In this document: positions 25,990 to 42,825 of the stretch, piece after piece
Layout of the letters: each line of letters begins with the position of its first letter
How positions within the stretch are numbered: position 1 is the first letter of the stretch
Assembly: GCA_016875335.1 (NCBI GenBank)
Contig: VGRO01000004.1
Span: 32,158-96,157 of the forward strand
Origin: Deltaproteobacteria bacterium
GTDB lineage: Bacteria > Myxococcota_A > UBA9042
Direction: 5' to 3'
Length of the DNA: 64,000 bases
The notes under the pieces: model-generated
Seen by the model: the letters and a program-made list of their open reading frames with translations, nothing else
Database searches by the model: none
What the model was told of the DNA's origin: nothing
Translations under genes and position numbers: made by a program

Positions 25990-26268
25990 CTACTTGCCGT
26001 CGACCTTGTTCTTCAGTTCGAGGCCCACCTTGAAGAACGGCATCTTCTTGGGGCCGACCTTGACCGCGGTGCCGGTCTTGGGGTTGCGGCCGGTGTACGC
26101 CGGGTAGTTGCGCACGGTGAAGTTGCCAAAATTGCGAATCTCGATGCGCTCGTCCTTCTTCATCGCGTCGACCATCAGGTCGAAGATGGAGTTCACGACG
26201 GTGGACGCCTTGTCCTTGGTCAGGTTGGCTTTGGACGCGACGGCTTCGATGAGGTCAGACTTGGTCAT
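25990..26268 (-). CDS. HU/IHF-family nucleoid DNA-binding protein
   Basis: 92 aa; MTKSDLIEAVASKANLTKDKASTVVNSIFDLMVDAMKKDERIEIRNFGNFTVRNYPAYTGRNPKTGTAV... Confidence 0.85.
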   Translation of the reverse strand: MTKSDLIEAVASKANLTKDKASTVVNSIFDLMVDAMKKDERIEIRNFGNFTVRNYPAYTGRNPKTGTAVKVGPKKMPFFKVGLELKNKVDGK

Positions 26269-26621
26269 GGCAGGGCCTCTGAGGGAACGGGTTGCGCGGC
26301 AATTGCGTCAACCGGGTGGATGGGTGGGCTGCGGAACCGTGGGAACAAAGGCAGACCGTCCGGCGGTGCGGCCCAACGCGCCAGTCCGGCGGACTGGGGG
26401 CGCCGCAGTCGGCGGCGGTCCCGAGACCGTGTTCCAGCCGGTCGGGGCACGGGCGTTGGACCCAACCCCTTGAACTGGCTGCAAGTTCCTCGCCAGCGCG
26501 ACCCCGCGCAGCAAGGGGATGCGGAGTGTAGGGCGGTTGCACCCAAGGTGCAAGGGGTCGCCATGTTTTTTCGGCAGGTTGCGGCCAACGGCGCCGCGCA
26601 CGCTCGCGATCGGCCCGCCTG

Positions 26622-28817
26622 CTATGGGCACTTGAGGTTCTTGTTGGGCTGCAGCGGGTACTTCTTCGTCCACAAATCTCCTTTGGAATCTGAGCCCTTG
26701 CAGGGCTTGAACGAGGCTGGCGACCACGTCGCGACGCCCGCGCACCACATGTCCTGCATGTCCATGGTCGGACCGGTCTTGGCGGTGTGCAGCTTGCCGT
26801 CGAGGTACACCTTGATCGTCGGCGTCGATTTGCCAAAGCCGTTGTTCGAGAAATAGTAGACCCCGACGAAGTACGGCAGGTTGGGCTGGGGCACGTGCAC
26901 GGCGATGATCTCCGGCCCCCACCCGTCCTTGTCGTCGCGGTCCAAGGCGGCGTCGTCGTCGAAATCGTCGCTTTTTCCCCACTTGCCGACCACGTTCCAC
27001 ACCGAGCAGTCCAGGCACGGCGCGTACCACGGGTCGGGCTCCCCGTTCTTGTCCAGGTCGGGTTGACCGGGTTCGTCGGGCGCGTCGGCGTGGGCAAGGT
27101 GGACATCCAGGTCCGATCCCGCCGGCTTGCTGCCGGTGGCCGGGTCGGTCTCGTCGGTCTTGTCGGGATCGGCCGGGGTATCCCAGGTCAGTTCGACGTA
27201 GAGCTTGTCGTCGCTGATGACGTTCAGCTCGTAGCTGGTCGGCCCGCAGCCGGGCGTGTCGAACGCATCCGCGATTTCAAGGGTCACCACGTATTTGCCG
27301 GCGATGTTCGGTTGCAGTTGCGGAGTCTTGACGTTGGCGGACGGCTGGAAGGTCGCGTACGACCCGGCCGGCTGCTGCAGGGTCCACTTGTACTTGGCGA
27401 TCGGCTGCCCGCTCGACCCCGGGACCGAGCAGCCGGCGTCGAACTTGAGCTTGCTTTGCGGCAGCACGTCGCCGCTGAGTGAACCGCCGGTCGCCAGCTT
27501 GACTGCCATGCACGCCTTGGGGCACTGCACCGTCGCCGCCGCCTTGCCTTGCAGCGCAAAGGCCGCGATTCCGGCGTTGCTGGTCACTGCGATCTTGCCC
27601 TTGCTGCTCGCACCCAACTGCGGTGCCGTGTAGCTCACGCCCAGGCTGCAGGTGGCGCCCTTGGGCACGACGACAGGGTGGGCGGCGCTCGGCGGCTTGC
27701 CGTTGAAACACGTGGACGCAAAGCTGACGGCAAAGCCCTGATCGACACCCTCGGCCACAGCGACGTCGGTGATGGCCAGATCTTCGGTGCCGCACGCCTG
27801 AATCTGCACTTCGCGCGGCTGCGGCACGCCGACGGGCACGACGCCGAAGTCGATGGGCCCTGGCGGCACGAATTTCACGCACGGCCCGGTGGTGTTGACG
27901 ACAAAGCTCAGGTCGACCTTTTCCTTGCCCGGCTCGTTGGTGGTGAGCCGCAGGATGGCCTGCGCCTTCTCCTCGCTGGCCAGATTCTTGAAAACGACCG
28001 GAATCTCCAGGGCGGTGCCGGCCGCGATTTCGACGGTCTTGCCTGCCGGCAGGTCGGCGCCTTTGGCAATGGTGTAGGGGCCGAGTTGGGCTTGCAAGGG
28101 CAGCGATCCGAGCATGGTGGCCGCGGAAAGGACCGCAGCCCCCTTGCCGTCGTTGGCGCAGAGCACGGTTGCCGTCGCCCCTTGGGCCAGACCGACCTTG
28201 CCGAAATCGGTGGTGGACGGCGTACAGTCCAGCTTGGGTGAGCCCAACCGCGTGGCAAACGTGGCCGTCCACGGCGTGTCGCCCTGCTTGACATCCCCTG
28301 AAAACGTGATCGCTACCTTGTACTTGCGCAGATCCGACCCCGCCGGCCGGGTGTAGCGCACGCTGAAGTTGACTTGGGTCAGCGCGCCAGCCGGCGCACA
28401 CTTGGGGTCGAATCCGGCTGGGATGACCGCCGGGAAGCCGGCCGGCGCACAGGGCTTGCCGTCGTGGGCGACACAGGCGAAGGCCGGCGCGGACACGGGC
28501 TTGCCGTCGCCGTCCGTTTCTTGCAGGGCGACGGCCTTGACGACCAGCGGCCGGCCCGACACCGCCTGCGCGTCGTTGCGGATGCGAAAGCTGAACTCGC
28601 GCGCGCCACCTGGCTGCAGGGCCACCACGTCGATGTCATAGGCGATGCCCGCAGCGTTGCCGGCCGCGTCCGAAACGCGCAGCACCGCGTTGTGGTCGAT
28701 GTTTTCGTTGGCGCATGCGCCGGACGTCGGCGCGTCGGTGCCGCAGCCGAGCACAGGGCCAGCGAGCACCGCGCCGGCAAGGCCGCAGGTTGTCCAGCTC
28801 CACATCCGACTGCGCAT
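26622..28817 (-). CDS. large secreted lipoprotein, paralog 1 of 3 (DUF1573/ASH-like Ig-fold repeats plus conserved acidic C-terminal domain)
   Basis: Lipobox start MRSRMWSWTTCGLAGAVLAGPVLGC at 28817. Repeats of PIDFGVVPVGVPQPREVQIQACGTEDLAITDV type. C-terminal domain ...ELTWDTPADPDKTD...DLDVHLAH...DLDKNGEPDPW...LDRDDKDGWGPE...VGVYYF... Confidence 0.7.
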   Translation of the reverse strand: MRSRMWSWTTCGLAGAVLAGPVLGCGTDAPTSGACANENIDHNAVLRVSDAAGNAAGIAYDIDVVALQPGGAREFSFRIRNDAQAVSGRPLVVKAVALQETDGDGKPVSAPAFACVAHDGKPCAPAGFPAVIPAGFDPKCAPAGALTQVNFSVRYTRPAGSDLRKYKVAITFSGDVKQGDTPWTATFATRLGSPKLDCTPSTTDFGKVGLAQGATATVLCANDGKGAAVLSAATMLGSLPLQAQLGPYTIAKGADLPAGKTVEIAAGTALEIPVVFKNLASEEKAQAILRLTTNEPGKEKVDLSFVVNTTGPCVKFVPPGPIDFGVVPVGVPQPREVQIQACGTEDLAITDVAVAEGVDQGFAVSFASTCFNGKPPSAAHPVVVPKGATCSLGVSYTAPQLGASSKGKIAVTSNAGIAAFALQGKAAATVQCPKACMAVKLATGGSLSGDVLPQSKLKFDAGCSVPGSSGQPIAKYKWTLQQPAGSYATFQPSANVKTPQLQPNIAGKYVVTLEIADAFDTPGCGPTSYELNVISDDKLYVELTWDTPADPDKTDETDPATGSKPAGSDLDVHLAHADAPDEPGQPDLDKNGEPDPWYAPCLDCSVWNVVGKWGKSDDFDDDAALDRDDKDGWGPEIIAVHVPQPNLPYFVGVYYFSNNGFGKSTPTIKVYLDGKLHTAKTGPTMDMQDMWCAGVATWSPASFKPCKGSDSKGDLWTKKYPLQPNKNLKCP

Positions 28818-28897
28818 CGACGCCACCACTGCCCGCGGCGCAAAACCGGGCCGCACGCCGCCAGTGTGCCACGCAGGCCGGCCGGGGTCCAAAACGC

Positions 28898-31231
28898 CTA
28901 CTTGGCGCAGGCTTTCAGCGTGATCGAGGTCAAACTCCAGTATTTCGGCACGATTTTGCCCGCCGACGGCGCCTTGAGGTTGGCGCCCCCGAAGTTGGCC
29001 AGGTCGCAGCTGGGCCATTTGACTTGGGTCACCCACCACATTTCACACTCGTTCATCGGCTGGTCGAACTTGGCCTTGAGCGCGCCCATGCAGTAGATGC
29101 GCACCGTCGCGGTGCTGGGCGAGCTGCTGTTGAAGCCGTGCGCGTCCCAGAAGTGCACGCCGACGCCGTAGTCCACGCCGTTCTCGGGCAGTTGCAGGTT
29201 CATGTTCTCGGGTCCCCAGCCGTTGGTGTCGTCGAGATCCAGGCTCGGGTCATCCGTCTGCAAGGCTGCGTTGCCCCACTTCGGGGCCGGGTTGATCCAG
29301 TACACGTCGTACACGCCATTGAACCACGGGTCGGTCTGGCCGTCCTTGTCCAGGTCGGGCTGGCAGTTCTTGGTGACCGTCGCGCTGCACTGTTGGGCTT
29401 GGTAGGCCTTGCTGTGCACCACGTGCAAGTCGAGGTCGGCGCCCTCGGCATTGGGCCCGTCGTCCTGCACGGTGTCCTCGGGGGTGTTCCACAGCAGCTC
29501 TACGTGGAAGGCCACGCTCGGCACCACCAGCACCGACAGGACCGCGGGCGCGCACGATTCGGTGCCACTGTCGTCCCACACCTGCAGCTTGACCTTGTAC
29601 TCGCCGGCTACCGTCAGCCACACGATCGGGCTGCCGTCGGGCTTGGTCCCCGGCACGCCCAACTGCACGTCGGCGGAGGTGTCGTTGGGGTGGAATTTGA
29701 CGCCGACCGCGCCGGCCGGGGCGTCGAGCAGCGTCCACTTGTACTTGACCACCTTTCCGGGCGGCGCGGCGTAGCTGGCAGACCCTTTGAGCTTGAGCGG
29801 CATCTGCGGTTCGATCTGCTCGCCCGGCTCGGGAACGATGACCGGCGTCGGGCACTTGGCCGCGTTACCGGTGCACGATAGCGTAATGGTCTTGTTGGGT
29901 TTCGCCGTCGAGTCGACCAGGTCCAGCTTTGCCGTGAACGGCTGGTTGACCCCGGCGCTGTCCTTGTTCTCGCTCGGTGGCGTACACGCGATGTCGAGCG
30001 TGGCCTTGCCGTTCTTGGCCAGGACCGTCGGCTGGTCCGGGGTCGGCAACTTCGCGTTCTTGAAAGCGTAAACGCCAGCGGTGTCGCCCGCGATCTTGGC
30101 CGAGTTGATCTGCACCTCGCCTTCGCCGCAGTTGGTCAGCGTCACGGTCTTGACCGACTCGGTGCCGACGTACACTAGGCCGTGATCCAAGGCTTTTTCT
30201 GGCTTGACCAAAAGGCACGGCACGTTGAGATTGCCGGCCAACTGCACGGTCGCCGCGCCGGCCGCGTTGCTGGTCAGCGTCAAGGTCGCCTTGCGTCCCT
30301 TGTCGTCGATGGGCGCGAAGACCACTTCGCCGTCCAGGCTCTTGCCCGGTTCAATCAGGATCGGCGGGGCGAAGGTGACGTCCTTGTCGCCCGTCGCGGT
30401 CTTGCCACCAAGCTTGACGGCAAAGGTCTTGTCCTGCAGGGGCCACTGGATGCCGGTGACCTCCAGCATCGCCTCGCCGGTATTCTGAACCGCCAGCGCT
30501 TGCACCGAAGGGGGAGCCCCCGGGGCGACCACGGCGAAATCGACGAACTGCGGCGCTACGTTGATTGCGGGCTTGCCCTGCTTGGTCTGCACGGCGAATT
30601 GCACGAAAGTCTGATCCGGGTCACCATCGGACTTGATCTGCACGTTCACGGACTTGGGCAGGTTGTCGGTCTTCTCGAAGCGGATGACGAAGCGGGCGGC
30701 GTCGATCGCCTCGCGGGTCGTACAGGCCGCCTCGAAGTCCTTGGGCACGATCGACCCCCATGTGTGGTCCTTGCACAGCACCGCGACGCCGTTCTTCTTG
30801 ACGATCTTGCCGTCCTTGTCGGCCGCGAGGCACGAAAACGCCGTCTCGCCGGCCGGCGCCACCACCTCGATCTTGCCGATGAGCAGTTCCAGCGCGGCGC
30901 TGGTCTGTGCCTCATTGGAGATCTGGAAGGCCGTGTCCACGGGCGGACCGCCGATCGTGGTCGCCGCGGCATTGACCACCACCGGGACCGTCGGGTTGAC
31001 GGCGGTCAGGCCCTGGCGCAGTTGCAGCTTGGCCTTGCGGTCCAGGCCCGTGGTGTTGTCCTTGTCGAAGCTGCATTTCTTGGCCACGACCGCGCCGCCG
31101 TCCGGACCCGTGCCCGCGCCGGTTCCCGACGACCCCTCCGACAAACAGGACGCCAAGGCGGCCAGGCACACCAAGGCCCCCGCGATCGCCGCGCTCGCGG
31201 CCGACCGCCCGTTGCAACGCATCTGCATCAT
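28898..31231 (-). CDS. large secreted lipoprotein, paralog 2 of 3
   Basis: Start MMQMRCNGRSAASAAIAGALVCLAALASC. DUF1573-like repeats (FVDFAVVAPGAPPSVQALAVQNTGEAMLEVTGI; LDHGLVYVGTESVKTVTLTNCGEGEVQINS). C-terminus ELLWNTPEDTVQDD...DLDLHVVH...DLDKDGQTDPW...LDLDDTNGWGPEN...VGVHFW... Confidence 0.7.
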   Translation of the reverse strand: MMQMRCNGRSAASAAIAGALVCLAALASCLSEGSSGTGAGTGPDGGAVVAKKCSFDKDNTTGLDRKAKLQLRQGLTAVNPTVPVVVNAAATTIGGPPVDTAFQISNEAQTSAALELLIGKIEVVAPAGETAFSCLAADKDGKIVKKNGVAVLCKDHTWGSIVPKDFEAACTTREAIDAARFVIRFEKTDNLPKSVNVQIKSDGDPDQTFVQFAVQTKQGKPAINVAPQFVDFAVVAPGAPPSVQALAVQNTGEAMLEVTGIQWPLQDKTFAVKLGGKTATGDKDVTFAPPILIEPGKSLDGEVVFAPIDDKGRKATLTLTSNAAGAATVQLAGNLNVPCLLVKPEKALDHGLVYVGTESVKTVTLTNCGEGEVQINSAKIAGDTAGVYAFKNAKLPTPDQPTVLAKNGKATLDIACTPPSENKDSAGVNQPFTAKLDLVDSTAKPNKTITLSCTGNAAKCPTPVIVPEPGEQIEPQMPLKLKGSASYAAPPGKVVKYKWTLLDAPAGAVGVKFHPNDTSADVQLGVPGTKPDGSPIVWLTVAGEYKVKLQVWDDSGTESCAPAVLSVLVVPSVAFHVELLWNTPEDTVQDDGPNAEGADLDLHVVHSKAYQAQQCSATVTKNCQPDLDKDGQTDPWFNGVYDVYWINPAPKWGNAALQTDDPSLDLDDTNGWGPENMNLQLPENGVDYGVGVHFWDAHGFNSSSPSTATVRIYCMGALKAKFDQPMNECEMWWVTQVKWPSCDLANFGGANLKAPSAGKIVPKYWSLTSITLKACAK

Positions 31232-31277
31232 GGTCCTTCTCTGGCGGCGGACGAGCGCGGTCCGCGCGCTGCGGCGG

Positions 31278-33656
31278 CTACTGGGTCTTGCACTGGGTGG
31301 CTGCGCCACCGACCGACCCGTTGAAGACCTTGTTGACGTAGCACTTGGTGATGCACCAGTCGCCCTTTGGCTGCCACATCAGGTTCTTCTTGGCCGGACA
31401 CGAGTAGCCCGATTGGTAGCAGGTGTCGAACACCTTCTTGCTGCCGCCCGATGCGGTGTTCGGCCAGTTGACGCGACCGACGAACCACATGTCGAGCGGG
31501 TCCATCTTGACCTTGGTGAACTGCAAGGCCAAACCGCCCTGGATATAGATGGACACGGTGGCGTAAGAGGTGCCGTAGCCGTGGTCGTTCCAGTAGTGGA
31601 CGCCGACGTGGTAGGCGACCGGGTCGTCGACCGTGCCCTCGGGATCGACCAGGTTCAGGTTCTCTGGACCGGCGCCGTCGGTGTCGTCCAGGTCCAGGGT
31701 CGGGTTGTCCTTGGTGTTGCCGGCGCCGCCCCACTCGGGCGCTGCGTTGAACCAGAACGTGTCCCACGGGTTGCTGAACCACGGATCGGCCTGGCCGTCG
31801 CAGTCCAGGTCGAGCGTCGAGGCCAGCGGGTGCGCAAAGTGCAGGTCGAGGTCGGCGCCGGCCGCGGGGCCGCTGTCGGTCTGGTCGGGGTCCGATGGCG
31901 TATCCCACAGCAGTTCGATGTGCAGGGCGTTGTTGGGGATGACCAGCACCTTCTGGCACGCCGGCACGCACGACTTGCTGTCGTTGGCGTCCCAGACCTC
32001 CAAGCAGAACTCGTATTCGCCGGACGCGTTGGCCAAAATCGACGGGTTGGCGAAGGACGCATTCGGCAACAACGGCTGGTTCGACCCCGCGGGCTGCTTG
32101 ACCGTCCACTTGTACTTCTTGATGGTGCCGCCGCCCGGGGCCTGTGACTTGTCGCCCTTGAGGTGGATGGTGGTCTGCGGCACCACCTGCTCGCCTTCGA
32201 CGACGATGACCTTGGCGATGGGGCAGGTGACCTTGACGCCCACGCCCTCGAGCTGCAACTTGGGCGAAACGAACGCATTGGACTTGACCGTGAGCACCGC
32301 GATGTCGGGCGGCTGACCGTCTTCGGTCAGGTCGCTCGGCGCGTAGGCGACCTTGAACGTGGCCTCGCCGTTGATGGGCAAGGTCATCGGGTTGTCGGCG
32401 CTGATGGGGCCGGTGCCGTTCTTGGTCTTGGAGAAAAGCGGCGTCTGGTCGATGGCGAATTCGTTGCTCTTGGTCTCCCCGGCGATGAAGTCGATGCTGG
32501 TGACCACCAGATCGACCGAACCGCAGTTCTTGATCTTGACCTCGGCGGTCCCGGGGGTGCTGCCCGGCACGGCGCCACCAAAGTTGTACTTGCCGGTCGG
32601 GGTCATGCACAGCGCCGGCACCGCGGTGTTGCCGTAGATGTCGAGCTTGCGGCTGGCGGTGTCGGGATCGGTGCTCTCGAACTTGACCGTGCCCGACTTC
32701 TTCTTGTCGTCCTTGGGCGCGAAGATGACCTCGAACTGCGCCGACTTGCCCACGTCGATTTCGAGCGGTTTGGCGAAGAGCCAGGGCTTGCCGCCCTGAT
32801 GGGCCTCGGTGTCGTGGTCGGCCGGGTCGACGAGCTTGATCGTGTACGCGGGATCGACCTCGGCCATCTTGATCGAGGTCAGCGTCAGCACGGCGTCGCC
32901 AGCGTTGACGGCCTGAAAGGTCTTGGGTTCGGTCTTGCCCGGTTGGGTATAGGGGAAGATCAGACCGTCGGCGGGCTGCAGCTCGAGCTTGGGCTTGCCC
33001 TGCTCGGTCTTGACGGTGAAGGAGAAGGTGCGATCGGACACCTCCTTCATGCCGCCAAGGTGCAGCGTGACCTTGGCCGTCCGGTCCTTGGCGTCAAAGC
33101 GCGTAAAGCGCACGTACAGGCTTTCCTTGTCCGCCTGCCCCGTCTTGGGCGTCAGGCCGACCGGGACGACCTCCTTCCAGGTGGTCTTGTCGCAACGGGT
33201 GGTCAGCGCGGCGTCGTGGAAGCACTCCAGGCTTTGTTTGTCAGGGGTTTCGTCTGGGCTGCCGGGGTTGTAGCCAAACTCGACCTTGGAGATCTTGAGC
33301 GAGGCGGCGTCGGACACGCTCTTGGTGTTGCGAATGAGCACCTGCAGCGCTTCGGTGCTCTTGCCCAGCTTGATCGAGCCCACCGACAACGCGATCGAAC
33401 CAGCGGGGGTCACGGTCTTGCCGAGCGAGGGCACCGTCAACTGGACGGCTGCGTTGCAGTCGATGGCCACGCCCGCGGCCGACACGCCGGTGCCCGACAA
33501 GCACGCGAATTCGCCGATTTTGTCGTTGCTGCCGGGTTTGTCGCCGCCGGGGCCGGAGCCGCCGCCCGGCAACCCGGAGTTACAGGCGGCGGCGAGCGCC
33601 AGGGCTGAGGCCAGCCACAGAGCGCGGGTCGTGCGGTCGGCAAGGCGGGTGTTCAT
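31278..33656 (-). CDS. large secreted lipoprotein, paralog 3 of 3
   Basis: Start MNTRLADRTTRALWLASALALAAAC at 33656, with a GGAG RBS. Same repeat/C-terminal architecture: ELLWDTPSDPDQTD...DLDLHFAH...LDCDGQADPW...LDLDDTDGAGPEN...VGVHYW... Confidence 0.7.
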   Translation of the reverse strand: MNTRLADRTTRALWLASALALAAACNSGLPGGGSGPGGDKPGSNDKIGEFACLSGTGVSAAGVAIDCNAAVQLTVPSLGKTVTPAGSIALSVGSIKLGKSTEALQVLIRNTKSVSDAASLKISKVEFGYNPGSPDETPDKQSLECFHDAALTTRCDKTTWKEVVPVGLTPKTGQADKESLYVRFTRFDAKDRTAKVTLHLGGMKEVSDRTFSFTVKTEQGKPKLELQPADGLIFPYTQPGKTEPKTFQAVNAGDAVLTLTSIKMAEVDPAYTIKLVDPADHDTEAHQGGKPWLFAKPLEIDVGKSAQFEVIFAPKDDKKKSGTVKFESTDPDTASRKLDIYGNTAVPALCMTPTGKYNFGGAVPGSTPGTAEVKIKNCGSVDLVVTSIDFIAGETKSNEFAIDQTPLFSKTKNGTGPISADNPMTLPINGEATFKVAYAPSDLTEDGQPPDIAVLTVKSNAFVSPKLQLEGVGVKVTCPIAKVIVVEGEQVVPQTTIHLKGDKSQAPGGGTIKKYKWTVKQPAGSNQPLLPNASFANPSILANASGEYEFCLEVWDANDSKSCVPACQKVLVIPNNALHIELLWDTPSDPDQTDSGPAAGADLDLHFAHPLASTLDLDCDGQADPWFSNPWDTFWFNAAPEWGGAGNTKDNPTLDLDDTDGAGPENLNLVDPEGTVDDPVAYHVGVHYWNDHGYGTSYATVSIYIQGGLALQFTKVKMDPLDMWFVGRVNWPNTASGGSKKVFDTCYQSGYSCPAKKNLMWQPKGDWCITKCYVNKVFNGSVGGAATQCKTQ

Positions 33657-33959
33657 GGTGCGGCTCCTGCGGAGTGCGGGTTGCGTTGTTTCGTTGGAAG
33701 CGAAGGAGTCAGAAGTTGGCCTGCGCTCGTCGTGGCGTTTGGCCGGTGGCCGTCGGGGTCTGTGGTCCCATCCAGGTCTGCGTTCCCATCCAGGTCTGCG
33801 TTTACTGGGCGCTTGCGGCGCGTACGGTGATGCCGCGGCGCCAACCGCAGGCACAACCTCCCGACTGTAACGGCGGGTCCGCGACCCGTCAACCACAAAA
33901 CGACGCCCAAAATCGGACCCGTGGGCGCGCTGGGGCCGACAGGCCCACGCTCGGCCCGT

Positions 33960-35531
33960 TCAGTCGCCGCCGGTCGGCACCTGATACCACTTGCGGGTCC
34001 ACTCGGTTAGCATGTTGTCGTCGGTGACAAAAGGCGTGTGCAACGTGCGCTCGACCAGTTTGGCGCAGGTTTCGGCCTGGCCGCCGTCGGGGCCGTAGGT
34101 GCTCTGGTCGGCGAGGCGCAAGATCTCGTCCAAGCGGCCGCGGTGCTGGGGATTGGCGAGATCGAAGATCTTGCGGCCGTCGACCACGATCTTTTCCAGT
34201 TCGGCGCGCCAGCGGTCGCGGTCGAGGGCGACCGGTTCGTCGCTCAAATACATGAAATTGATGATGCGCAGGCCGTGCTTGAAAGCGCCGCAGCCGGTCT
34301 TTTGCGCCGTCTCGCTCCAGGTAGTGTTGTAGACGAAAAGCCCGCCGGGGTTGAGGTGGTCCTTGACCAACTGCAGGTATTCCATGCTCAGCAGGTCGGT
34401 GATGTTGCCGCGCCAGTGCCAGGTGGTGTTCTGCAAGACCGTGTCGAACCTTTCTTTCGGGTGCGCGCGCAGCCAGCGGCGGCCGTCGTCGAACACCAGA
34501 TGGACTTTGGGGTTCTTGAGCAGCGACTGCACCTCGGGGAACTTGGCGACCAGCTCGGGGTAGCCGGGGTTGATCTCGACCACCGTCAGATCGGTCACGC
34601 CGGGCAGGTGCGCCACGACCTGCGCCCACGACCCGGACGACAAACCGATCATCAACACTTTCCCTGTATTGCGCGGCAAGCCCGCCAACGCATAGGCTCG
34701 CACGATCAGATTGCGATCGTGCACCACGTCGGTATTGAACACCCCGTCGTACATGCCGCCGCCATAGATCGCGCCGTCTTGGGACACGGTGATGACGCCT
34801 GAACGGTTCTCGACGACGTGGGCGAACTGCTGGCCCTGGTACTTCTTCTTCCACATCAGCCGTTCGTAGAGGCCCGCGTGCAAGCCGGGGCCGGCGAGCG
34901 CCCCGACCACGGCAAAGAGCGGCAACACCATCACGCCCACGGCCTTTTGCACGGGCTCGGTCGAACTCGCCCACCACAGGATCGACGTCAACACGACGCC
35001 CAGGACCATCAGCAGCGCGGAAATGTGTGGCAGCGGTAGCCATTGCATCAGCACAAAGCCGGTGAGCAGCGACCCAGTGACGCTGCCGGCGATGTTGGCG
35101 AGGTAGAGGTAGCTCAGTCTTTCGCCGACCTGCGCATCGGCGGCGATGCCGTAATGGGCGACCAGCGGCAAGATGGCGCCCATCAATCCAGCCGCAAGTG
35201 CGACGGCCGCGAGCGAAAACGCGTACGTGGCGAACGTCACCAATTGCGCCACCGCCGGCGCGAGGAGAAAGCTGACCGCAGTCGAGGCGAGCACCAGCCC
35301 CGCCGGCCAGCGCAGCCGCTTGGGGTCGCCGCCGACGCCGACCTCGTCGCAGACTTTGCGGGCGCCCAGGCTGCCCAACGCGATGCCGGCCAGATACGCA
35401 CCGAGCATGACGGCAAAACTGGACGGCGCGCCGCCGGTCAAGAAGCCATAGACGCGAAACCACACCATTTCGTAGGAAAGTGCGACGTATCCGGCGAGAC
35501 CGGTGACCAGCAGGGCCAGGCGAAATGACAT
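33960..35531 (-). CDS. membrane-anchored polyamine aminopropyltransferase (spermidine synthase-like with N-terminal ~7-TM domain)
   Basis: N-terminal 200 aa are hydrophobic helices. The C-terminal domain has spermidine-synthase motifs (VLMIGLSSGSWAQVV; TVVEINPGYPEL; VFDDGRRWL). This architecture is known from Mycobacterium SpeE. Confidence 0.8.
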   Translation of the reverse strand: MSFRLALLVTGLAGYVALSYEMVWFRVYGFLTGGAPSSFAVMLGAYLAGIALGSLGARKVCDEVGVGGDPKRLRWPAGLVLASTAVSFLLAPAVAQLVTFATYAFSLAAVALAAGLMGAILPLVAHYGIAADAQVGERLSYLYLANIAGSVTGSLLTGFVLMQWLPLPHISALLMVLGVVLTSILWWASSTEPVQKAVGVMVLPLFAVVGALAGPGLHAGLYERLMWKKKYQGQQFAHVVENRSGVITVSQDGAIYGGGMYDGVFNTDVVHDRNLIVRAYALAGLPRNTGKVLMIGLSSGSWAQVVAHLPGVTDLTVVEINPGYPELVAKFPEVQSLLKNPKVHLVFDDGRRWLRAHPKERFDTVLQNTTWHWRGNITDLLSMEYLQLVKDHLNPGGLFVYNTTWSETAQKTGCGAFKHGLRIINFMYLSDEPVALDRDRWRAELEKIVVDGRKIFDLANPQHRGRLDEILRLADQSTYGPDGGQAETCAKLVERTLHTPFVTDDNMLTEWTRKWYQVPTGGD

Positions 35532-35559
35532 GGGCGGCCTTGGGGCGAAGGTTGCGGGA

Positions 35560-35910
35560 TCAGTCCTCGCCGTCCAGGTCGGCCCACAGCAGGCGCGACA
35601 GGACGAGATCGTGCAGATCCTCGGGCACGGGGTGGGCGCTCAACAGCACCGGCGCCGCGGCGACAGCCCGTGCCAGTTGGCCGGGATCGGCGATGGCCCG
35701 CAGGCGCACCACGCCGTTTTCATTCTCCAGCAGTGCGCTCGGACCCGAGGTGCACGCCGACAGACAACTGGACCGTCCGACCTCTGCCGTCGCGCCCTGG
35801 GCCTTGGCCGCTTTCTTGGCGGCGGAGGTCATGCGGGCCAGCGACGCCGTCGGCGCAGGGCGCGGACAGCCGGAGCACAGGTGGATGCGCAGGTGGACGC
35901 CGTCGCTCAT
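35560..35910 (-). CDS. small Cys-motif protein (thioredoxin-like [2Fe-2S] ferredoxin-like / DUF1636-like); start overlaps the upstream stop (ATGA)
   Basis: MSDGVHLRIHLCSGCPRP...SSCLSACTSGPSALLENENGVVRLRAI (CxxC ... CxxxC-GP). Its ATG at 35910 overlaps the TGA of the LolA-like gene. Confidence 0.45.
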   Translation of the reverse strand: MSDGVHLRIHLCSGCPRPAPTASLARMTSAAKKAAKAQGATAEVGRSSCLSACTSGPSALLENENGVVRLRAIADPGQLARAVAAAPVLLSAHPVPEDLHDLVLSRLLWADLDGED

Positions 35911-36692
35911 TTGCCGAGCGCCTCGGGCACAAACATCGATTCGGGCAGCGGGGTCTTTTGGTCGACGTCGCGGGTCTCGACCGTGGTCACCGAGTTGCGC
36001 AGGTGGTTGATCATCCGAAACTTCTTCATCACCGTTCGGCCTGGCTCGCCGGCCTGTACCTGATCGACGACGAGCGTCTTGACGTGGGCGCCGGCCTTGT
36101 CGAAGAAGTTGATCTGCCGCGCCAGCCACAGCCGTTCGTCGATCCACAACTGCACTTTGCCGTAGGCATCTTGCCCGTCGACGATCGCCACGTCGATGCG
36201 GGTGCACGGCGCCCCGCCGATGGCCTCGCTGCCGGCCAGCTTGGCCTCGCCGGTCTGCAGCCCGCGGCCCTGCAGGTCACCGAAAGAGAAATCGGTGCCC
36301 ATGAAGGCTTCGTTGCGCTGCGAGCCGCTGATGCGCCGCAGCCGGCCGGTCTTGGGCAGCCACAGGTACTGGCTGGCCGCGCCGCCGCCCTCTTCGAGGA
36401 TGAGCAGTTCGGTGCCGACGGCGTCCGCAGGCTCCAGGAAGGTGACCCGCGACTTGAGGCGTCCGTCCTTGCCTCGCAATACCCGACTCAACGTCAGCCA
36501 CGTCTTGGACTTGCCGCTGGCCAGGGTCAGCGTGACCGACGTCTTGCTCTGGCCGGCCTGAAAGCCGCTGGCGTTGCGGTCGTTGGTCGCCTGCAACACT
36601 TTGCGTGCGGCGGGATCGTCGGCGCCCAGCGCGGGCAAGGACAGGGCCATCGACAAGATCGCCGCGGCGGCCAAGAAAAGATGCATGTCCAC
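35907..36692 (-). CDS. LolA-like outer-membrane lipoprotein-sorting family protein (periplasmic)
   Basis: Signal peptide MDMHLFLAAAAILSMALSLPALGA. Family-typical segments ...YLWLPKTGRLRRISGSQRNEAFMGTDFSFGDL... and ...KVQLWIDERLWLARQINFFDKAG... Confidence 0.65.
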   Translation of the reverse strand: MDMHLFLAAAAILSMALSLPALGADDPAARKVLQATNDRNASGFQAGQSKTSVTLTLASGKSKTWLTLSRVLRGKDGRLKSRVTFLEPADAVGTELLILEEGGGAASQYLWLPKTGRLRRISGSQRNEAFMGTDFSFGDLQGRGLQTGEAKLAGSEAIGGAPCTRIDVAIVDGQDAYGKVQLWIDERLWLARQINFFDKAGAHVKTLVVDQVQAGEPGRTVMKKFRMINHLRNSVTTVETRDVDQKTPLPESMFVPEALGK

Positions 36693-36707
36693 CTCGCGAC
36701 CGCGCGC

Positions 36708-37516
36708 CTACGCCGGCCGTGCGTGCAGCCACGCCTTGGTGCGGGCGTGTTCGGGGGCGCGCTCGGTGCGCTTGACCCGGTAGCCGCAGCCGCGCGAAAT
36801 CAACTGCACCGTGTGGGCGCGACCCGGGAAGGCCGCCTGGAGTGCGGCGAGCACCGCGTCTGTGTCGAAGAACTTGCAGGAAAAAATGTCGAAATACGCG
36901 CGCTGGCTGGCCAGGTCGATGTGCACGGCGATGTGCGATTCGGCGATCATGGTCATCGCCGACAGCCAACTGGCGCCGTCGGGCCCGGCGGCATCGGTCG
37001 ACCGCAGCACGTAGGGCCGCATGATCGGCGTCATGTCGATGCGCGGCGGCAGGTTGTCGAAGAGGTGGAAAAGGCCGTCCATGTCGCTCGGGCCGCAGTA
37101 GCCGTCGATGTTGAGCAACAGGTGCGGACCAAAGTCCTCGCTCGGGTGGACCGGCACCTCGTCGAACGGCCGCGGTCGCCGGGCGGTGTGAACCTCGACG
37201 GAGCGGACCGGCAGCGCGTTCTGGATGTAGGCGTTGGCCTCGTGGACGTCGAAGGCCCGCGGCGCGACCAGATCGACGAAGTAGCACTCGCGAAAGCTGA
37301 AGGTGTGCAAAGTCAGGTGGCCGCCCGGCAGCAATACGAACGCGCTGATGCCGCAGTCGTCGGGTTCGACACCGTTGTAGTACGGCAACAGCATCGGCGG
37401 CATCGCCGGCTGCAGCCCGAGGCGCGCCGGCAGCTCCTCGACCAACTCGTGGATCAACCGGATGTCGTCGAAGCGCGATCGGTGACCGCCAAAGCCATCG
37501 AGCGTATAGTGCAGCA
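36708..37516 (-). CDS. pyruvoyl-dependent AdoMetDC-family decarboxylase, tandem (pseudo-dimeric) fusion
   Basis: Real start MLHYTLDGFGG at 37516; the listed ORF 36708..39254 runs on upstream. The first half has a degenerate HLTLHTFSFRE motif with no Ser. The second half has the processing site AESHIAVHIDLASQRAYFDIFSCKFFD (ES↓H). Confidence 0.7.
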
Positions 37517-37583
37517 TGGTTCCAGGCGCGCGGCGATGGGGTTGTGGGCCGCGGGGCGCGCAATTGTGGCAGAGGTCGCGGTG

Positions 37584-39209
37584 GTGCAAAAGGGGTGCGG
37601 CGCGCAGTTCAGCCGGAGGCGTTCGGCAACGCGTGGGGCCTGCGCGGCGCTTGCGCTGGCGGCGTGGGCCTGTCCGGACCAGACGGCGGCCGATCCGATC
37701 GACGCATCGGAGGCAACGACCCCGACCGCGGACGACCCAGCGGACTTTGGAGGCGATGCGCCGACCGAGGCGCCACCGGCGGGCCCGACGCTTTTTTGGG
37801 GCGCGTGGGTGGGAGCGATCGGCGTCGACTTGGGCGCCGAGGATCCGGCTGAGGATGTGCTGACACTGCGCAACCGCCTGGAGTTGGACGTCCAGCATCC
37901 GCTGCCCGGCGGGCTGCAGACCCGGGTCAGCGCCAGGCTGCTGCACCGCGCCCAAGTCGGCCATGAGGGCGGCGTGCACAGACCGGCTTTTCGCGCAAGT
38001 CTGCCCGATCTGGGCATGCGCTACGACCTCGACAGCCAACTGCGCCACGCCCATGTGCAGTGGTCCGCCCCGTGGGGCCGGCTGACCGTCGGGCGCGACA
38101 CCGCCCAGTGGGGTGCGCTGGAGCTGCAGAGCGCGCTGCGCTTCTTGCAGCCGATGGATTTCAGCAACGGGCTGGTCGGCAGCCTCGCCAACCCGGACGA
38201 GTCCCCGCTCTTGCCCACGCTGATGGCGCGCCTGGAGCGTCCGGTCGGACCCGGCCAGCTCGACCTGGTGTTCCTGCCCTTCTTCGACCAGCACCGCTAT
38301 TCGCCGTTTGCCACCGACGCTGCGTTCGTGCGGCCTGGTCAGGGTCCAGAGCTTTCCGGGTCGATAGGGGCCGTGCTGCGGCGCCTCGACCTGCGGCTGG
38401 ACCGCCAGCTCTCGCAAGCCCTGATGATCGCACTGCAACCGCCGAGCGACACCCCGCTCGACGGCTCGCCGGCCGCGCGCTGGCGGGTGCCGATCGGTCG
38501 GTTCGACGTGGCCCTGGTCGCGGCCTGGACTTGGGATCGCCTGCCTGAGCTGCAATTGGACGCGGACCTGCTGCTGCTGCTGGCGCGCACCGCCGACGCC
38601 GGCTTCGACACAGCCCGGCTGGCGGCGATGTTCGCCGATCCGCAGGTGGCCGCCGCGGCCGACCGCGCCAAGGGCAAGTCGGTGCGCGATCTGGCCAAGG
38701 CGACCTGGCGCCGCCGTGGCATCGTCGGTCTGGAGGCCCAGGGTGAGGTGGCCGAGGGCTGGGTGGCGCGCGGCGAGCTGGCGTGGAGCCACCAGCGGGT
38801 CTTCATGGACACTGGGTTTCGGCCGCTGTTGTCGCCACTGGCCCAGGCCGGCGCCGGGCTGGAGCGCAGCTGGGGGGACCGCGTCGTCGCCCTGGTCGAG
38901 GTCGCAGGCCAGTGGGCCTACCGCGTGCCGGCGGACACGGAGCTGATGTTGGCGGCGGCGGTGCAATGGCAGGTGGGCGGCGGGGTCATCGTGCGGTGGG
39001 GTGAGGCCGACGCCTGGACCGGACAACTGGGCGGCACCTATGGCCTGACATTGCGCGACTGGGCCGTCGCGCCGCGGCTGAGCTGGCAAGCGGGTGATCG
39101 TTGGACTGCGGCGTTGGCCGCCGTGATCGCAGACGGACCGCCCAATTCCATCGGCGGCTGGTTCGGGGCGGACGATCAGGTGATCGTGGAACTGCGGCGC
39201 ACGTTCTAG
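37584..39209 (+). CDS. hypothetical lipoprotein, possibly an outer-membrane beta-barrel (C-terminal ...VELRRTF)
   Basis: Downstream part of listed ORF 35670..39209. Putative GTG start with ...RGACAALALAAWAC lipobox. Sequence is rich in W/Y/F and ends in Phe. The upstream part of that ORF is an antisense shadow. Confidence 0.45.
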   Translation: MQKGCGAQFSRRRSATRGACAALALAAWACPDQTAADPIDASEATTPTADDPADFGGDAPTEAPPAGPTLFWGAWVGAIGVDLGAEDPAEDVLTLRNRLELDVQHPLPGGLQTRVSARLLHRAQVGHEGGVHRPAFRASLPDLGMRYDLDSQLRHAHVQWSAPWGRLTVGRDTAQWGALELQSALRFLQPMDFSNGLVGSLANPDESPLLPTLMARLERPVGPGQLDLVFLPFFDQHRYSPFATDAAFVRPGQGPELSGSIGAVLRRLDLRLDRQLSQALMIALQPPSDTPLDGSPAARWRVPIGRFDVALVAAWTWDRLPELQLDADLLLLLARTADAGFDTARLAAMFADPQVAAAADRAKGKSVRDLAKATWRRRGIVGLEAQGEVAEGWVARGELAWSHQRVFMDTGFRPLLSPLAQAGAGLERSWGDRVVALVEVAGQWAYRVPADTELMLAAAVQWQVGGGVIVRWGEADAWTGQLGGTYGLTLRDWAVAPRLSWQAGDRWTAALAAVIADGPPNSIGGWFGADDQVIVELRRTF

Positions 39210-39401
39210 TTTCTTGCGGCCAGCCTCCGGCTGCTGCCGGCTGCCGCCGTCCAAAAAGTCAAACGCGCCCCCGGTCCAGGCCGCCGCCGCCTTTCTTTCG
39301 GAGGCGACGACGGTCGGATCGGTTGCGCGTTGATCGGCTGCGCCGCGAGTCCGGCCCTGCGGGGAGGCAGAGCCAGCCGTGGCCGTCGCGAGGTCGTGGG
39401 G

Positions 39402-39686
39402 CTACTTGATGTGCTCGACGCCCTGCTTCTCGACGGTGGCCTTCCACACCTTCTCTGGCAGCCACTTGGGGCGGTTCGCCGGAGCGGTGACTTCCTTGCG
39501 GCCGCCCTTGAACACGTGCACGCGCTTGGTGCCGCGCTCGCGCAGGCGGATTTCGGTGTAGCCGCGGGCGGCAGCCTTGAGCGCGGCGCCGCGCGGTTGC
39601 GCGTTGGAGAACACGATGTTGGTGTCCTTGCCGTTCTCCATCAGCACGAAGTTCTTCTTGTCCTTGGCGGGCTTGTCGTCGGCCAT
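39402..39686 (-). CDS. non-histone chromosomal protein MC1 family (archaeal-type) DNA-binding protein
   Basis: 95 aa from ATG 39686, with GGAGG 6 nt upstream. MADDKPAKDKKNFVLMENGKDTNIVFSNAQPRGAALKAAARGYTEIRLRERGTKRVHVFKGGRKEVTAPANRPKWLPEKVWKATVEKQGVEHIK aligns with Methanosarcina MC1 (KRNFALRD..G..HGVF.G.QPRQAALKAA.RG...IRLRERGTKKVHVF.G.R.EV..P.N.P.W.P). Confidence 0.7.
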   Translation of the reverse strand: MADDKPAKDKKNFVLMENGKDTNIVFSNAQPRGAALKAAARGYTEIRLRERGTKRVHVFKGGRKEVTAPANRPKWLPEKVWKATVEKQGVEHIK

Positions 39687-40314
39687 GTTGCCTCCAGTTG
39701 CTTTGGGACTGCATTGCGCGCAGTCAGTTGTGCGACGGCCGCGCGGGCGGCCTTCGGTCCAGATCACCTTGCCTGGGCGCACCGACGCCGGGGGAAAGGG
39801 CGCCCGTCGGGGGGCGACCCTGTCTTGGCGACAGTACGGCGACCCGCCGATCGCGCCTGGACGGACCGACTCCCGTCAGCCGGCCGCAGCGCTGGATCGC
39901 GGTCGCGGCGCGCATTGCGCCCTTGGCGCGCTGTATCGGCCGATTCGCGCAAGATTGCAAGGGGGCACGCGGCGCGGGGCGCAGATTCGCTCAAAAAAGC
40001 CGAGACCGGGTCTGGACGAGCGCAGTAGACGATAAGCGGCGCAACCTGCGATTCCATCGATATTACACGTATTTTAGAGTATCGTCTCCGGTGCGAGCGA
40101 CGCGAACAGGGCCGCTGTGGGGTTGTGATCACGATCCGTGCCACGTGATCACGGCCCGCGGCTCCGGCCTGCGCGGCATGGTCGAATCGCCAGCCGCCGT
40201 GCTACGGTCGCCCCATTGCGGCGCACCGCGCCCAGGGGATCGATCCTGCCCGTGTCCGCCGCCCGGCCCAGCGCGACGTGTTCCCCGAACCGGCTGCGGC
40301 GGTGGCTGGCCCGG

Positions 40315-42825
40315 GTGAGGTCGTGGCTGTCGCTCATCCTTGTGGCTGCGGTGGTCGGTTCGCTCGCGCCGCAGCGCACGGCCGAGGCCCGCCCGGGCCG
40401 GGTCAACCGCGCCAAGGACGAGGCCGCTTCACCGAGGCGCGGGAGCAAGGCTGCGCCGGCCGCGCGCGCCCGCTCGGCCGCCAAGCCCAAACCGAACCGC
40501 ACGGCCAAGGGCGCCGTCCACCGACGAGGCGAGCGCGGCCGCGACAAGCCGGGCAAGCTGCGCAAGGTGCGGCCGGCGCCTCCCGGCAAGCGAACCACGG
40601 CCAAGCCGGTGCCCGACCTGGAGCCGTCTGCAGCCGACGACCCTCACCCCGACCCCGCCGGCCTGCCAGTCGCGGCGACCTGGAGCGAGCTGCACCGGGT
40701 GGTCCAGTTGTGGCGCGTGGGCAAAACCGGGCGACTCGCCGAGGAGTTGCAGCACCTGCAGCGCGCCAAAGACAAGGACCTGGCGGCCGCCGCATCCCAC
40801 GTGTTGGCGCGGGTACTGGCGCGCCACGGCCAGGGTACGGCGGCGGCCAAGGCGCTGGCCCGGTCCCGGATCGTCGCCGACAGCCTTCCCGCCGCGCACC
40901 GCTGGGCGGGCATTGAGGTGGCACAGGCGCAGGGCAAGTCCAAGGTGGCCCTGGACAAGCTGCGGTCGTTCCGCGCCGATTTCGGCAGTTTTCGCTGGGC
41001 AGCCGCCGACCTGCTGTATTCGCGCCTGCACGAAAAGGTCGGCCCTGCCGAGGCGGCGGCGCAGACAGCGCTGGCCCTTTACGACAAGAGCGCCGAGCAC
41101 CTGCCGCGCGACGAGCTTTTGGCGCGCGCGGCGCGGGTGCTGCAGGCCGTCGACCGCGCACGCAGCGACCAACTGTGGAAAAAACTGATTCTGACGCACC
41201 CCGAATCGCAGTTCGTGGACGAGGCGGCCGAGCGCGTGGCGCTGGCCTCGCTCAGCGACGCCGAACAGTTTGACCGCATGGTGACGCTGTTTTCGCGGCG
41301 GGCCTACGAGCGCTGCCGGTCTGTGGGCGTGCAATTGTGGGTCAAAGGCTACCGACGCAACGAAGTCGGCTATTTTTTGGGCAAGATCGGCAGCGAACGG
41401 CTCAGGGACGACTACCCTGGGGCAGCGATGTACCTGGCCGAGGCGGCCACCCCCGACGCGCCGCTCTACCAGAACGCGCTGCCGTCGTACGCGCTGGTGC
41501 TCGGCAAGATCGGCAAGACCGACGAGGCAATCGCCCGCTACGATCAATGGCTTGCGCGCTTTGCCGGGGCCAAGAACGACCGCCGCATCGACCTGCACTA
41601 CGACCGCGCGCGCACCTTGCACATGGCCGGCCGCAGCCTACAAGCAGCCCGCGATTTGGGCGCGGCCCTGGACCAGGACGACAAGGACATCGACGTCGGC
41701 AAGTACCGGTGGTTCGTCGGCTTCTGGACCCTGCTGGGCGGCCGACCTGCCGAGGCAATTGACCTGCTCAAACCGCTGATGCCCAACACAAATCCGCTGG
41801 TGGGCGCCAAGGCGCGCTATTGGGTGGCCAAGGCACAAGACCGGCTTGGCGATCGCAAGGCCGCGACCGAAACGCTGCTGCAACTGGTCGACAAGTACCC
41901 GCTGACCTACTACAGCGGCCTGGCCGAGAACCTCTTGGAGGACTGGGGCCTCGGCGACAAGCTGCCGCCGCGGGAGGATTTTTCGAAGGTCCCGGTAGCC
42001 GTGACCGACCCCTTCGCAGGCATGCGGATGAACGACAACCTGCGGTCGCTGCGCATCGCCTGCGCGCTGGGCGAGCCAGACGTGGCACGGACGGCCTGGG
42101 ACACGCTGCAGGCGGGCTTGCGCATGGAGCTGGGAGCCGAGCGCCTGCGCAAGCTGCGGCTGGACCTCTCGGATGCGCTTGAGCTGTTCGCCGACGCCCG
42201 CAGCGACGCCCTGCGCAACCACCGCGACGTGCTGCAGCGGATGCCGACCCGCGACACCCTGGCGGCGTGGCGAGGCATCTATCCGCGGGCCTTTGCCACC
42301 CACGTCGTCGCCGCCGCCGAACGCTGGGGCGCGCCCGAATGGATGGTCTACGCCCACATGTTGCAGGAGTCAGCGTACCGACCGGAGCTCATCTCTGGAG
42401 CGCCGGCCTATGGCCTGCTGGAGCTGCTCGACCGCACCGCGCAGCGCCTGGCCAGCGAGGCCCGCGAGGACTACCAGTTGTGGATGCTGATGTGGCCCGC
42501 CCACAACGTGCGGTGGGGCACCCAGTACCTGGCGGCGCTGTACAAGAAGTTTCACCGCCAGTTGCCGTTTGCGATCGCGTCGTACAACGGCGGCCCGATG
42601 TTGCTGCAGTACCACATGCGGCAGCAGCACAAGCTCAGTCGCGGCTTCGACGAAATGATCGACGACCTCGGCCCGCACGAGTCGCGCAACTACGTGCGGA
42701 TGGTCATCGGTCACTTCTTGCGCTATCTGGCGATCTACGAGAAGCCCGACCGCGCCAAGGCGTACCGCAATCAGTTGCTGCCGCGGGCGTGGCAGGACGC
42801 CTACCTGGCCGACCCGGACTATTGA
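40315..42825 (+). CDS. soluble lytic murein transglycosylase (Slt family) with long N-terminal superhelical domain
   Basis: C-terminal SLT domain (VYAHMLQESAYRPELISGAPAYGLLELL; ASYNGGPMLL). Putative GTG start 40315 gives signal MRSWLSLILVAAVVGSLAPQRTAEA; the listed ATG 40138 gives an R-rich leader. Confidence 0.75.
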   Translation: MRSWLSLILVAAVVGSLAPQRTAEARPGRVNRAKDEAASPRRGSKAAPAARARSAAKPKPNRTAKGAVHRRGERGRDKPGKLRKVRPAPPGKRTTAKPVPDLEPSAADDPHPDPAGLPVAATWSELHRVVQLWRVGKTGRLAEELQHLQRAKDKDLAAAASHVLARVLARHGQGTAAAKALARSRIVADSLPAAHRWAGIEVAQAQGKSKVALDKLRSFRADFGSFRWAAADLLYSRLHEKVGPAEAAAQTALALYDKSAEHLPRDELLARAARVLQAVDRARSDQLWKKLILTHPESQFVDEAAERVALASLSDAEQFDRMVTLFSRRAYERCRSVGVQLWVKGYRRNEVGYFLGKIGSERLRDDYPGAAMYLAEAATPDAPLYQNALPSYALVLGKIGKTDEAIARYDQWLARFAGAKNDRRIDLHYDRARTLHMAGRSLQAARDLGAALDQDDKDIDVGKYRWFVGFWTLLGGRPAEAIDLLKPLMPNTNPLVGAKARYWVAKAQDRLGDRKAATETLLQLVDKYPLTYYSGLAENLLEDWGLGDKLPPREDFSKVPVAVTDPFAGMRMNDNLRSLRIACALGEPDVARTAWDTLQAGLRMELGAERLRKLRLDLSDALELFADARSDALRNHRDVLQRMPTRDTLAAWRGIYPRAFATHVVAAAERWGAPEWMVYAHMLQESAYRPELISGAPAYGLLELLDRTAQRLASEAREDYQLWMLMWPAHNVRWGTQYLAALYKKFHRQLPFAIASYNGGPMLLQYHMRQQHKLSRGFDEMIDDLGPHESRNYVRMVIGHFLRYLAIYEKPDRAKAYRNQLLPRAWQDAYLADPDY

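Follow-up and report, generated by a model that had tools for sequence, protein, structure and literature searches.

An intact gene of the archaeal-type MC1 chromatin protein family in a Myxococcota chromosome

The window, by which we mean the whole 64-kb stretch of DNA analysed here, carries a single copy of mc1, as judged by a search over its full length. The coding sequence (39402..39686, minus strand) begins with an ATG at 39686 and specifies 94 amino acids followed by a stop codon, MADDKPAKDKKNFVLMENGKDTNIVFSNAQPRGAALKAAARGYTEIRLRERGTKRVHVFKGGRKEVTAPANRPKWLPEKVWKATVEKQGVEHIK; its assignment to the MC1 family is based on the translation, the profile PF05854, the structure PDB 1T23, and an AF2 model. 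A Shine-Dalgarno sequence, GGAGG (39691..39695, minus strand), is read from the sequence 4 nt 5' of the ATG. It is kept in the aligned relatives L001-L003, and motifs of the GGAG/GAGG type precede the mc1 start in most other loci. The first-pass annotation of this DNA had described a 95-aa ORF with a good GGAGG ribosome-binding site; the ORF and the site are real, with the length corrected to 94 aa plus stop. A longer ORF of 126 aa that opens at an in-frame GTG (39782) was rejected because its upstream part lacks protein conservation. The relatives use the same ATG and the same GGAGG and have indels in the upstream stretch, which leaves the GTG start unsupported. An exact-sequence lookup of the mc1 protein returned no identical record.

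A Pfam profile search matched the product to PF05854 (MC1) with E=5.2e-29 and 100.8 bits, well over the cutoff of 23, and aligned protein residues 9-93 with profile positions 1-95 of 96. With phmmer against the Methanosarcina thermophila MC1 entries PDB 1T23/2KHL/2NBJ, the match spans residues 10-93 (E=2.2e-20), and BLASTP against the same protein gives 48.9% identity over 92 columns (E=4e-27). The profile search that had been named as the check on an MC1 homolog aligned over its whole length thus bears that proposal out, and the similarity extends far beyond a short basic stretch. The two proteins are also alike in composition: the window protein has a pI of 10.28 with K+R=22 and D+E=11, and M. 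thermophila MC1 has 93 residues, a pI of 10.32, and K+R=22. The product matches PF05854 alone and not the HU/IHF profile PF00216 (Bac_DNA_binding), and the NCBIfam models yielded no match to it. ORF 39402..39686 is an intact MC1-family gene in a bacterial chromosome.

The AF2 model of the protein, computed with 48 homologues as input, has a pLDDT of 88.2 and the element order b1-b2-a-b3-b4-b5. The tip of its long b4-b5 arm comprises residues 68-78 and includes P69, P73, and W75. NMR analysis of the Methanosarcina MC1-DNA complex had identified 14 contact residues, Arg4, Gln23, Arg25, Gln26, Lys54, His56, Arg71, Pro72, Trp74, and Met75 along with Lys81, Lys86, Ile89, and Lys91 (PMC6776556), and we transferred this list to the window protein via sequence alignments. 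Eight of the 14 are identical: Q30, R32, H57, R72, P73, W75, K82, and K87 correspond to Q23, R25, H56, R71, P72, W74, K81, and K86 in Methanosarcina numbering. This set includes the Trp that intercalates, the Pro that is inserted, and the Arg that neutralises the groove, and P73 and W75 are invariant in an alignment of 48 homologous sequences. Four further contacts are replaced conservatively (R4 by K11, K54 by R55, M75 by L76, and I89 by V90) and two are changed (Q26 to G33 and K91 to H92). A six-residue TKANPD loop of the Methanosarcina protein is absent from the window protein and from all bacterial and Marine Group II (MGII) homologues; the missing loop, together with Gly in place of Gln26, suggests that the binding geometry could differ from that of the Methanosarcina complex.

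The chromosome that bears mc1 is bacterial (Myxococcota). On the opposite strand lies a gene for a lytic transglycosylase with TPR and SLT domains (40138..42825, plus strand; PF01464, E=7e-17), so the divergent arrangement with an Slt gene that had been noted at first is confirmed. The true slt start is probably near 40273, since an orthologue is called at 850 aa, and the mc1-slt intergenic region measures ~450-590 nt depending on which slt start is chosen. Convergent with mc1 is a gene for an unannotated 557-aa protein that has no Pfam match. Other neighbours encode an AdoMet decarboxylase, a LolA-like lipoprotein carrier, a spermine-synthase-like protein, a XerC/D recombinase, YaeQ, and SecD, and genes for tRNA-Val and tRNA-Asp are also found in the window. 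The recombinase gene, 4.5 kb from mc1, is of the housekeeping XerC/D type (297 bits, above the subfamily cutoff of 279 bits), and it keeps its syntenic position in L003 and L050. An IHF/HU-family gene (25993-26307, minus strand; PF00216, 103.6 bits) is located 13 kb from mc1; its product is closest to IHF-beta models, under their cutoffs. Its presence indicates that a classical bacterial DNA bender has been retained beside MC1.

Two groups of nearby genes deserve separate mention. Adjoining mc1 is a polyamine-related cluster (33960-37517, minus strand) with genes for spermine/spermidine-synthase-like, LolA-like, and AdoMet decarboxylase proteins, which is syntenic in L001-L003 and L050 and absent in more distant relatives. 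Polyamines condense DNA too; the proximity of mc1 and this cluster may be a coincidence. The second group consists of large ORFs. ORF 10435-17079 (minus strand) encodes ~2214 aa with a weak Dictyostelium CTDC repeat as its sole Pfam match, and three more large ORFs nearby (26622-33959) are unannotated or have a PKD-like annotation only. All of these large ORFs may encode surface or secreted proteins.

The intergenic region contains a conserved block (39866..39998, minus strand) that takes in a T6 tract, a promoter-like motif, and the leader's initial ~60 nt. In a comparison of the window with L001, L003, and L002, the last of which is more distant, this is the best-conserved intergenic part, and it holds the perfect palindrome ATCGGCCGAT. 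The candidate mc1 promoter (39932..39960, minus strand) consists of a -35 element TTGCAA (39955-39960), a 17-nt spacer, and a -10-like GATACA (39932-39937); the T6 tract (39993-39998) lies ~33 nt upstream of this -35. The generalised motif TTGCNN-N17-NATAYN occurs upstream of mc1 in 19/25 bacterial loci, compared with 1.4% of shuffled upstream regions, and has 2 matches in the whole 64-kb window. The comparison upstream of mc1 includes the window, L001-L017, L053, L056, and L059; the spacer is 17 nt at every motif-bearing locus, with an extra N16 match in L010. GATACA is a poor match to a sigma-70 -10 element, and a scan of 39150-40250 with standard sigma-70 promoter and terminator consensus sequences found nothing; the promoter-like motif, as well as the hairpin described below, came from comparative alignment. 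A sigma-54 reading of the conserved block was rejected, as inspection by eye showed that the -24 GG is not kept among relatives.

From the predicted transcription start, the mc1 5' leader would extend over ~238 nt (39687..39925, minus strand). The distance from the -10-like element to the ATG, 245 nt here and 96-283 nt in relatives, implies a long leader elsewhere too (roughly 95-285 nt). Its sequence is kept in the closest relatives only, as seen in the alignment and with a leader profile that finds just those. The leader has no Rfam match, and its predicted folding is not better than that of shuffled sequences (z=-1.59). RNAalifold reports 13 pairs with compensatory changes, drawn from only four sequences of which three are near-identical. 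Downstream of the gene, a terminator-like element (39251..39333, minus strand) is made up of a long G+C-rich hairpin (39259-39333), seen in the centroid fold, followed by CUUUUUGG (39251-39258). Hairpin and T-run are kept in L001 and L003 and suggest that mc1 is a monocistronic unit.

The first-pass annotation had pointed instead to an AT-rich patch with a CGATA-N19-TATCG palindrome. The patch exists and is modest, with a GC content of 0.54-0.56 at 40000-40149 against 0.68 for the window. The palindrome is in fact CGATA-N17-TATCG (40058..40084); it is ~100-125 nt upstream of the conserved mc1 -35, probably in the slt upstream region. It has a single match in the window, where 0.04 would be expected, and 4/100 shuffles give one. 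We rejected it as an operator: its arms are just 5 bp long and have not been kept in the closest relative, L001 (97% identity in MC1), and its spacing had been misstated. The palindrome is probably irrelevant to mc1, and the candidate signal is the conserved promoter-like motif at 39932-39960.

Relatives of mc1 are numerous. A protein database search returned 310 homologues, the best at 95% identity, and 95%-identical proteins already bear the title "chromosomal protein MC1 [Myxococcales bacterium]" in NCBI. Among GTDB species representatives we found 46 loci with mc1 relatives; L001-L017, L020, and L025 are on Myxococcota-type contigs with a GC content of 0.62-0.70. The divergent SLT-mc1 pair is present in 15/17 loci of the L001-L017 series and also in L050-L059, contigs found by exact-protein lookup. 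The gene for LepA (bacterial EF4) is downstream of mc1 in 9/14 loci (L004-L017), a bacterial flagellin gene adjoins mc1 upstream in L016, and on the L019 contig a MopE-motif protein is encoded upstream of mc1, at a distance of a few genes. The bacterial MC1 clade comprises at least 20 species-level genomes, and giant viruses encode MC1-like proteins as well; contrary to the first-pass annotation, which had called the family largely confined to Euryarchaeota, it is not confined to them. The contig-level linkage in many independent assemblies excludes a binning or chimera artefact for this clade.

Across the L001-L017 series, identity to the window protein is 75-97% for MC1 and 51-86% for SLT; in the most diverged members SLT falls to 51-60% and MC1 remains at 75-87%. 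The dN/dS of mc1 is 0.02-0.25. That SLT diverges while MC1 stays, together with these low ratios, argues that mc1 has long resided in this Myxococcota clade, passed on vertically and under strong constraint.

Several public records with mc1 relatives carry doubtful labels. The flanking gene families of L018 ("Salinimicrobium") and L040 ("Yoonia") are common to MGII loci, the shared families being that of a giant protein with PA14/LamG domains, encoded upstream of mc1, and, in L018, a Macro-domain gene; L031 ("Verrucomicrobiales") matches the Poseidonia loci L027/L028. L018, L031, and L040, and also L021, appear to be archaeal contigs placed in the wrong bins. For L009, L015, L017, L019, and L022, the labels "Enterobacteriaceae" and "Rickettsiales" seem to be placeholders. 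L020 and L025 represent a bacterial MC1 subgroup that has diverged further (65-66% identity), with the changes P31 to A and K54 to D and a C-terminal RKK extension; their context contains a VKOR/DsbA fusion and two-component genes, without the SLT neighbour and without the promoter-like motif. At the MGII loci (within L023-L046), mc1 is almost always directly 3' of a gene for a ~1750-aa PA14 and LamG protein, and genes for succinate dehydrogenase/fumarate reductase flavoproteins often follow it, a stable archaeal synteny unlike the bacterial one.

The codon usage of mc1 is that of its host. Its GC3 is 0.937, and its CAI, referenced to the window, is 0.867, the highest in the window (mean 0.686, sd 0.04, for the other 29 genes) and above that of all 3000 random 95-codon segments drawn from other window genes. 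CAI and GC3 that equal or exceed those of the neighbours argue that mc1 is not a recent foreign gene. The GC3 and codon comparison proposed with the first-pass annotation therefore contradicts a recent import, as mc1 is fully host-adapted. With codon bias as a proxy, mc1 is probably highly expressed.

The closest archaeal relatives, which make up the remaining GTDB loci, are the MC1 proteins of Marine Group II (Poseidoniales), which share 60-72% identity with the window protein, compared with ~49% for Methanosarcina. The original comparison with Methanosarcina holds over the full length; the phylogeny check places the nearest archaeal kin elsewhere. In a neighbour-joining tree (85 columns, 500 bootstraps), bacteria and MGII are separated from Methanosarcina and haloarchaea with 98% bootstrap support; MGII forms a clade at 96%, and the bacteria form one at 23%. 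This grouping suggests one ancient exchange between the MGII lineage and bacteria, in either direction. Within our sample, identity ranges over 64-99% in the bacterial clade and 72-100% in the MGII clade. As diversity among the bacterial proteins is no lower than among those of MGII, and as bacterial monophyly is unsupported, MGII may have received MC1 from these bacteria. MGII MC1 has already been regarded as probably derived by horizontal transfer (Hocher et al. 2022, PMC7613761), and a passing mention states that MC1 may accompany HU in bacteria (Burroughs et al. 2017, PMC5499826). Of the horizontal acquisition originally proposed, an inter-domain exchange remains likely; a recent or sporadic acquisition is at odds with the host codon usage and with synteny in at least 15 Myxococcota species-level genomes.

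These observations support a model, which we consider likely, in which mc1 encodes an abundant MC1-type DNA bender and nucleoid protein, is expressed as a monocistronic unit, and has been inherited vertically since one ancient transfer. In this uncultured Myxococcota bacterium, the product would bind DNA as a monomer, acting as a small and basic architectural protein, and, by analogy with the solved Methanosarcina MC1-DNA complex, would sit on ~15 bp of DNA. Arg32 (the counterpart of Arg25) is expected to neutralise the compressed major groove, and Arg55, His57, Arg72, Lys82, and Lys87 to contact phosphates. The long b4-b5 arm would insert Pro73 and Trp75, which it carries at its tip, into the minor groove and so produce a sharp bend or V-turn. 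Transcription as a single-gene unit would proceed from the promoter-like element ~245 nt upstream and end at the hairpin and U-run, and the protein would accumulate as an abundant nucleoid-associated protein beside the IHF/HU-family protein encoded in the window. High transcription has been reported for the MC1 gene of MGIIa archaea (PMC9723583). A single ancient crossing of the boundary between archaea and bacteria, in either direction, would have linked the MGII lineage with an ancestor of the Myxococcota clade, and vertical descent under strong purifying selection would have followed.

The unusual stability of the divergent SLT-mc1 pairing in the clade could point to a different role, that of a local sequence-specific regulator, for example of the lytic transglycosylase gene, rather than a genome-wide architectural protein. 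The two genes are separated by a long intergenic stretch (~450-590 nt) in which palindromes occur, and Methanosarcina MC1 has a sequence preference in SELEX (PMC6776556). Yet the pairing is lost in L016, L019, L020, and L022, where the MC1 protein is still conserved; the arms of the palindrome are unconserved; the set of DNA contacts is that of a non-specific bender; and a codon bias stronger than that of any other gene in the window points to a product considerably more abundant than a typical dedicated regulator. We regard a local regulator as unlikely.

Slightly less probable still is a conditional function, in which the protein is made mainly under UV, radiation, starvation, or low temperature and serves DNA protection or stasis. 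Such a role would fit the planktonic habitats of the carriers (lake, groundwater, and ocean), which resemble those of MGII archaea, and the long 5' leader, which could permit post-transcriptional control. It would also agree with a protective effect of MC1 on DNA against radiation, as cited in PMC7613761, and with M. acetivorans mutants in DNA-binding proteins, whose differences show chiefly after stress or stasis (bioRxiv 10.1101/2025.11.24.690127). However, high codon adaptation fits constitutively abundant proteins better, and the leader shows neither significant structure nor an Rfam match. Protection of DNA moreover overlaps with, and does not exclude, an abundant nucleoid protein.

An artefact or a recent import, be it an archaeal contaminant, a chimeric assembly, or a new genomic island, is suggested by the facts that all relatives are on MAG contigs, that several public MAGs (L018, L040, and L031) are mis-binned, and that a tyrosine recombinase gene is close by, but is effectively refuted by the bacterial genes on the same contig, a gene order that repeats in more than 15 independently assembled and diverged genomes, GC3 and CAI at or above those of the neighbours, the housekeeping type and synteny of the recombinase, and searches for vectors in which phage records and IMG/VR contigs contained no mc1 and plasmid matches were restricted to haloarchaeal megaplasmids (37-41% identity), with no bacterial plasmid carrier.

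To our knowledge, MC1 is regarded as an archaeal chromatin protein, and all its biochemistry comes from Methanosarcina. A long-kept and constrained bacterial mc1 offers a natural test of whether an architectural protein can be integrated across domains into chromatin beside IHF/HU, and the origin of MGII MC1 gains a specific bacterial partner clade. The small size, monomeric state, and ease of expression of the protein make the case amenable to testing. An abundant bacterial MC1 would be a second case, after the Bdellovibrio histones, in which "non-bacterial" chromatin has been fixed in bacteria. More tentatively, and with odds that we place somewhat below even, the planktonic Myxococcota clade may build its nucleoid partly with MC1, which would rank among its most abundant chromatin proteins beside IHF/HU, with MGII MC1 possibly derived from bacteria. 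The system itself is of an established kind: the MC1 family has been described, NCBI already labels close homologues as MC1, and its occurrence in some bacteria has been mentioned (PMC5499826). A literature search of sources outside subscription journals brought up no study in which a bacterial MC1 is characterised.

Among known systems, one of the closest is MC1 of Methanosarcina thermophila CHTI55 (PDB 1T23, 2KHL, 2NBJ), which belongs to the same family over its full length and resembles the window protein in identity, size, and pI. Both possess the Pro/Trp wedge, the groove Arg, and most of the Lys, Arg, and His residues that contact phosphates. They differ in host domain, in a loop of 6 residues that follows the helix and precedes b3 and is absent from the window protein, and in the exchanges of Gln26 for Gly and Lys91 for His; the window protein coexists with an IHF/HU-family protein, whereas Methanosarcina MC1 coexists with archaeal histones. 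MGII MC1 is more similar in sequence and has the loop deletion and the RGAALKAA and KRVHVFKG motifs in common with the bacterial proteins, but reads IKKA where bacterial MC1 reads VWKA. Its context is archaeal: the gene for the giant PA14/LamG protein lies upstream, and genes for Macro-domain proteins and succinate dehydrogenase are close by. Giant-virus MC1-like proteins (mimivirus gp275, bioRxiv 10.1101/2024.02.22.580433; Faunusvirus, Pandoravirus, and others) likewise place MC1 outside archaea, and the AF2 model matches predicted giant-virus MC1-domain proteins with TM values of 0.6-0.74, a probability of 1.0, and 16-34% identity. Unlike the window protein, they are often parts of larger proteins with a role in virion packaging, and the bacterial clade is not closely related to them. 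HBb of Bdellovibrio bacteriovorus (PMC10627809, PMC11317129) is a parallel by analogy only, as a chromatin protein of archaeal/eukaryotic type that became fixed in bacteria; it is reported to compact DNA by bending. HBb has a histone fold rather than an MC1 fold, and is an experimentally supported major constituent of chromatin, whereas bacterial MC1 is known from its genes.
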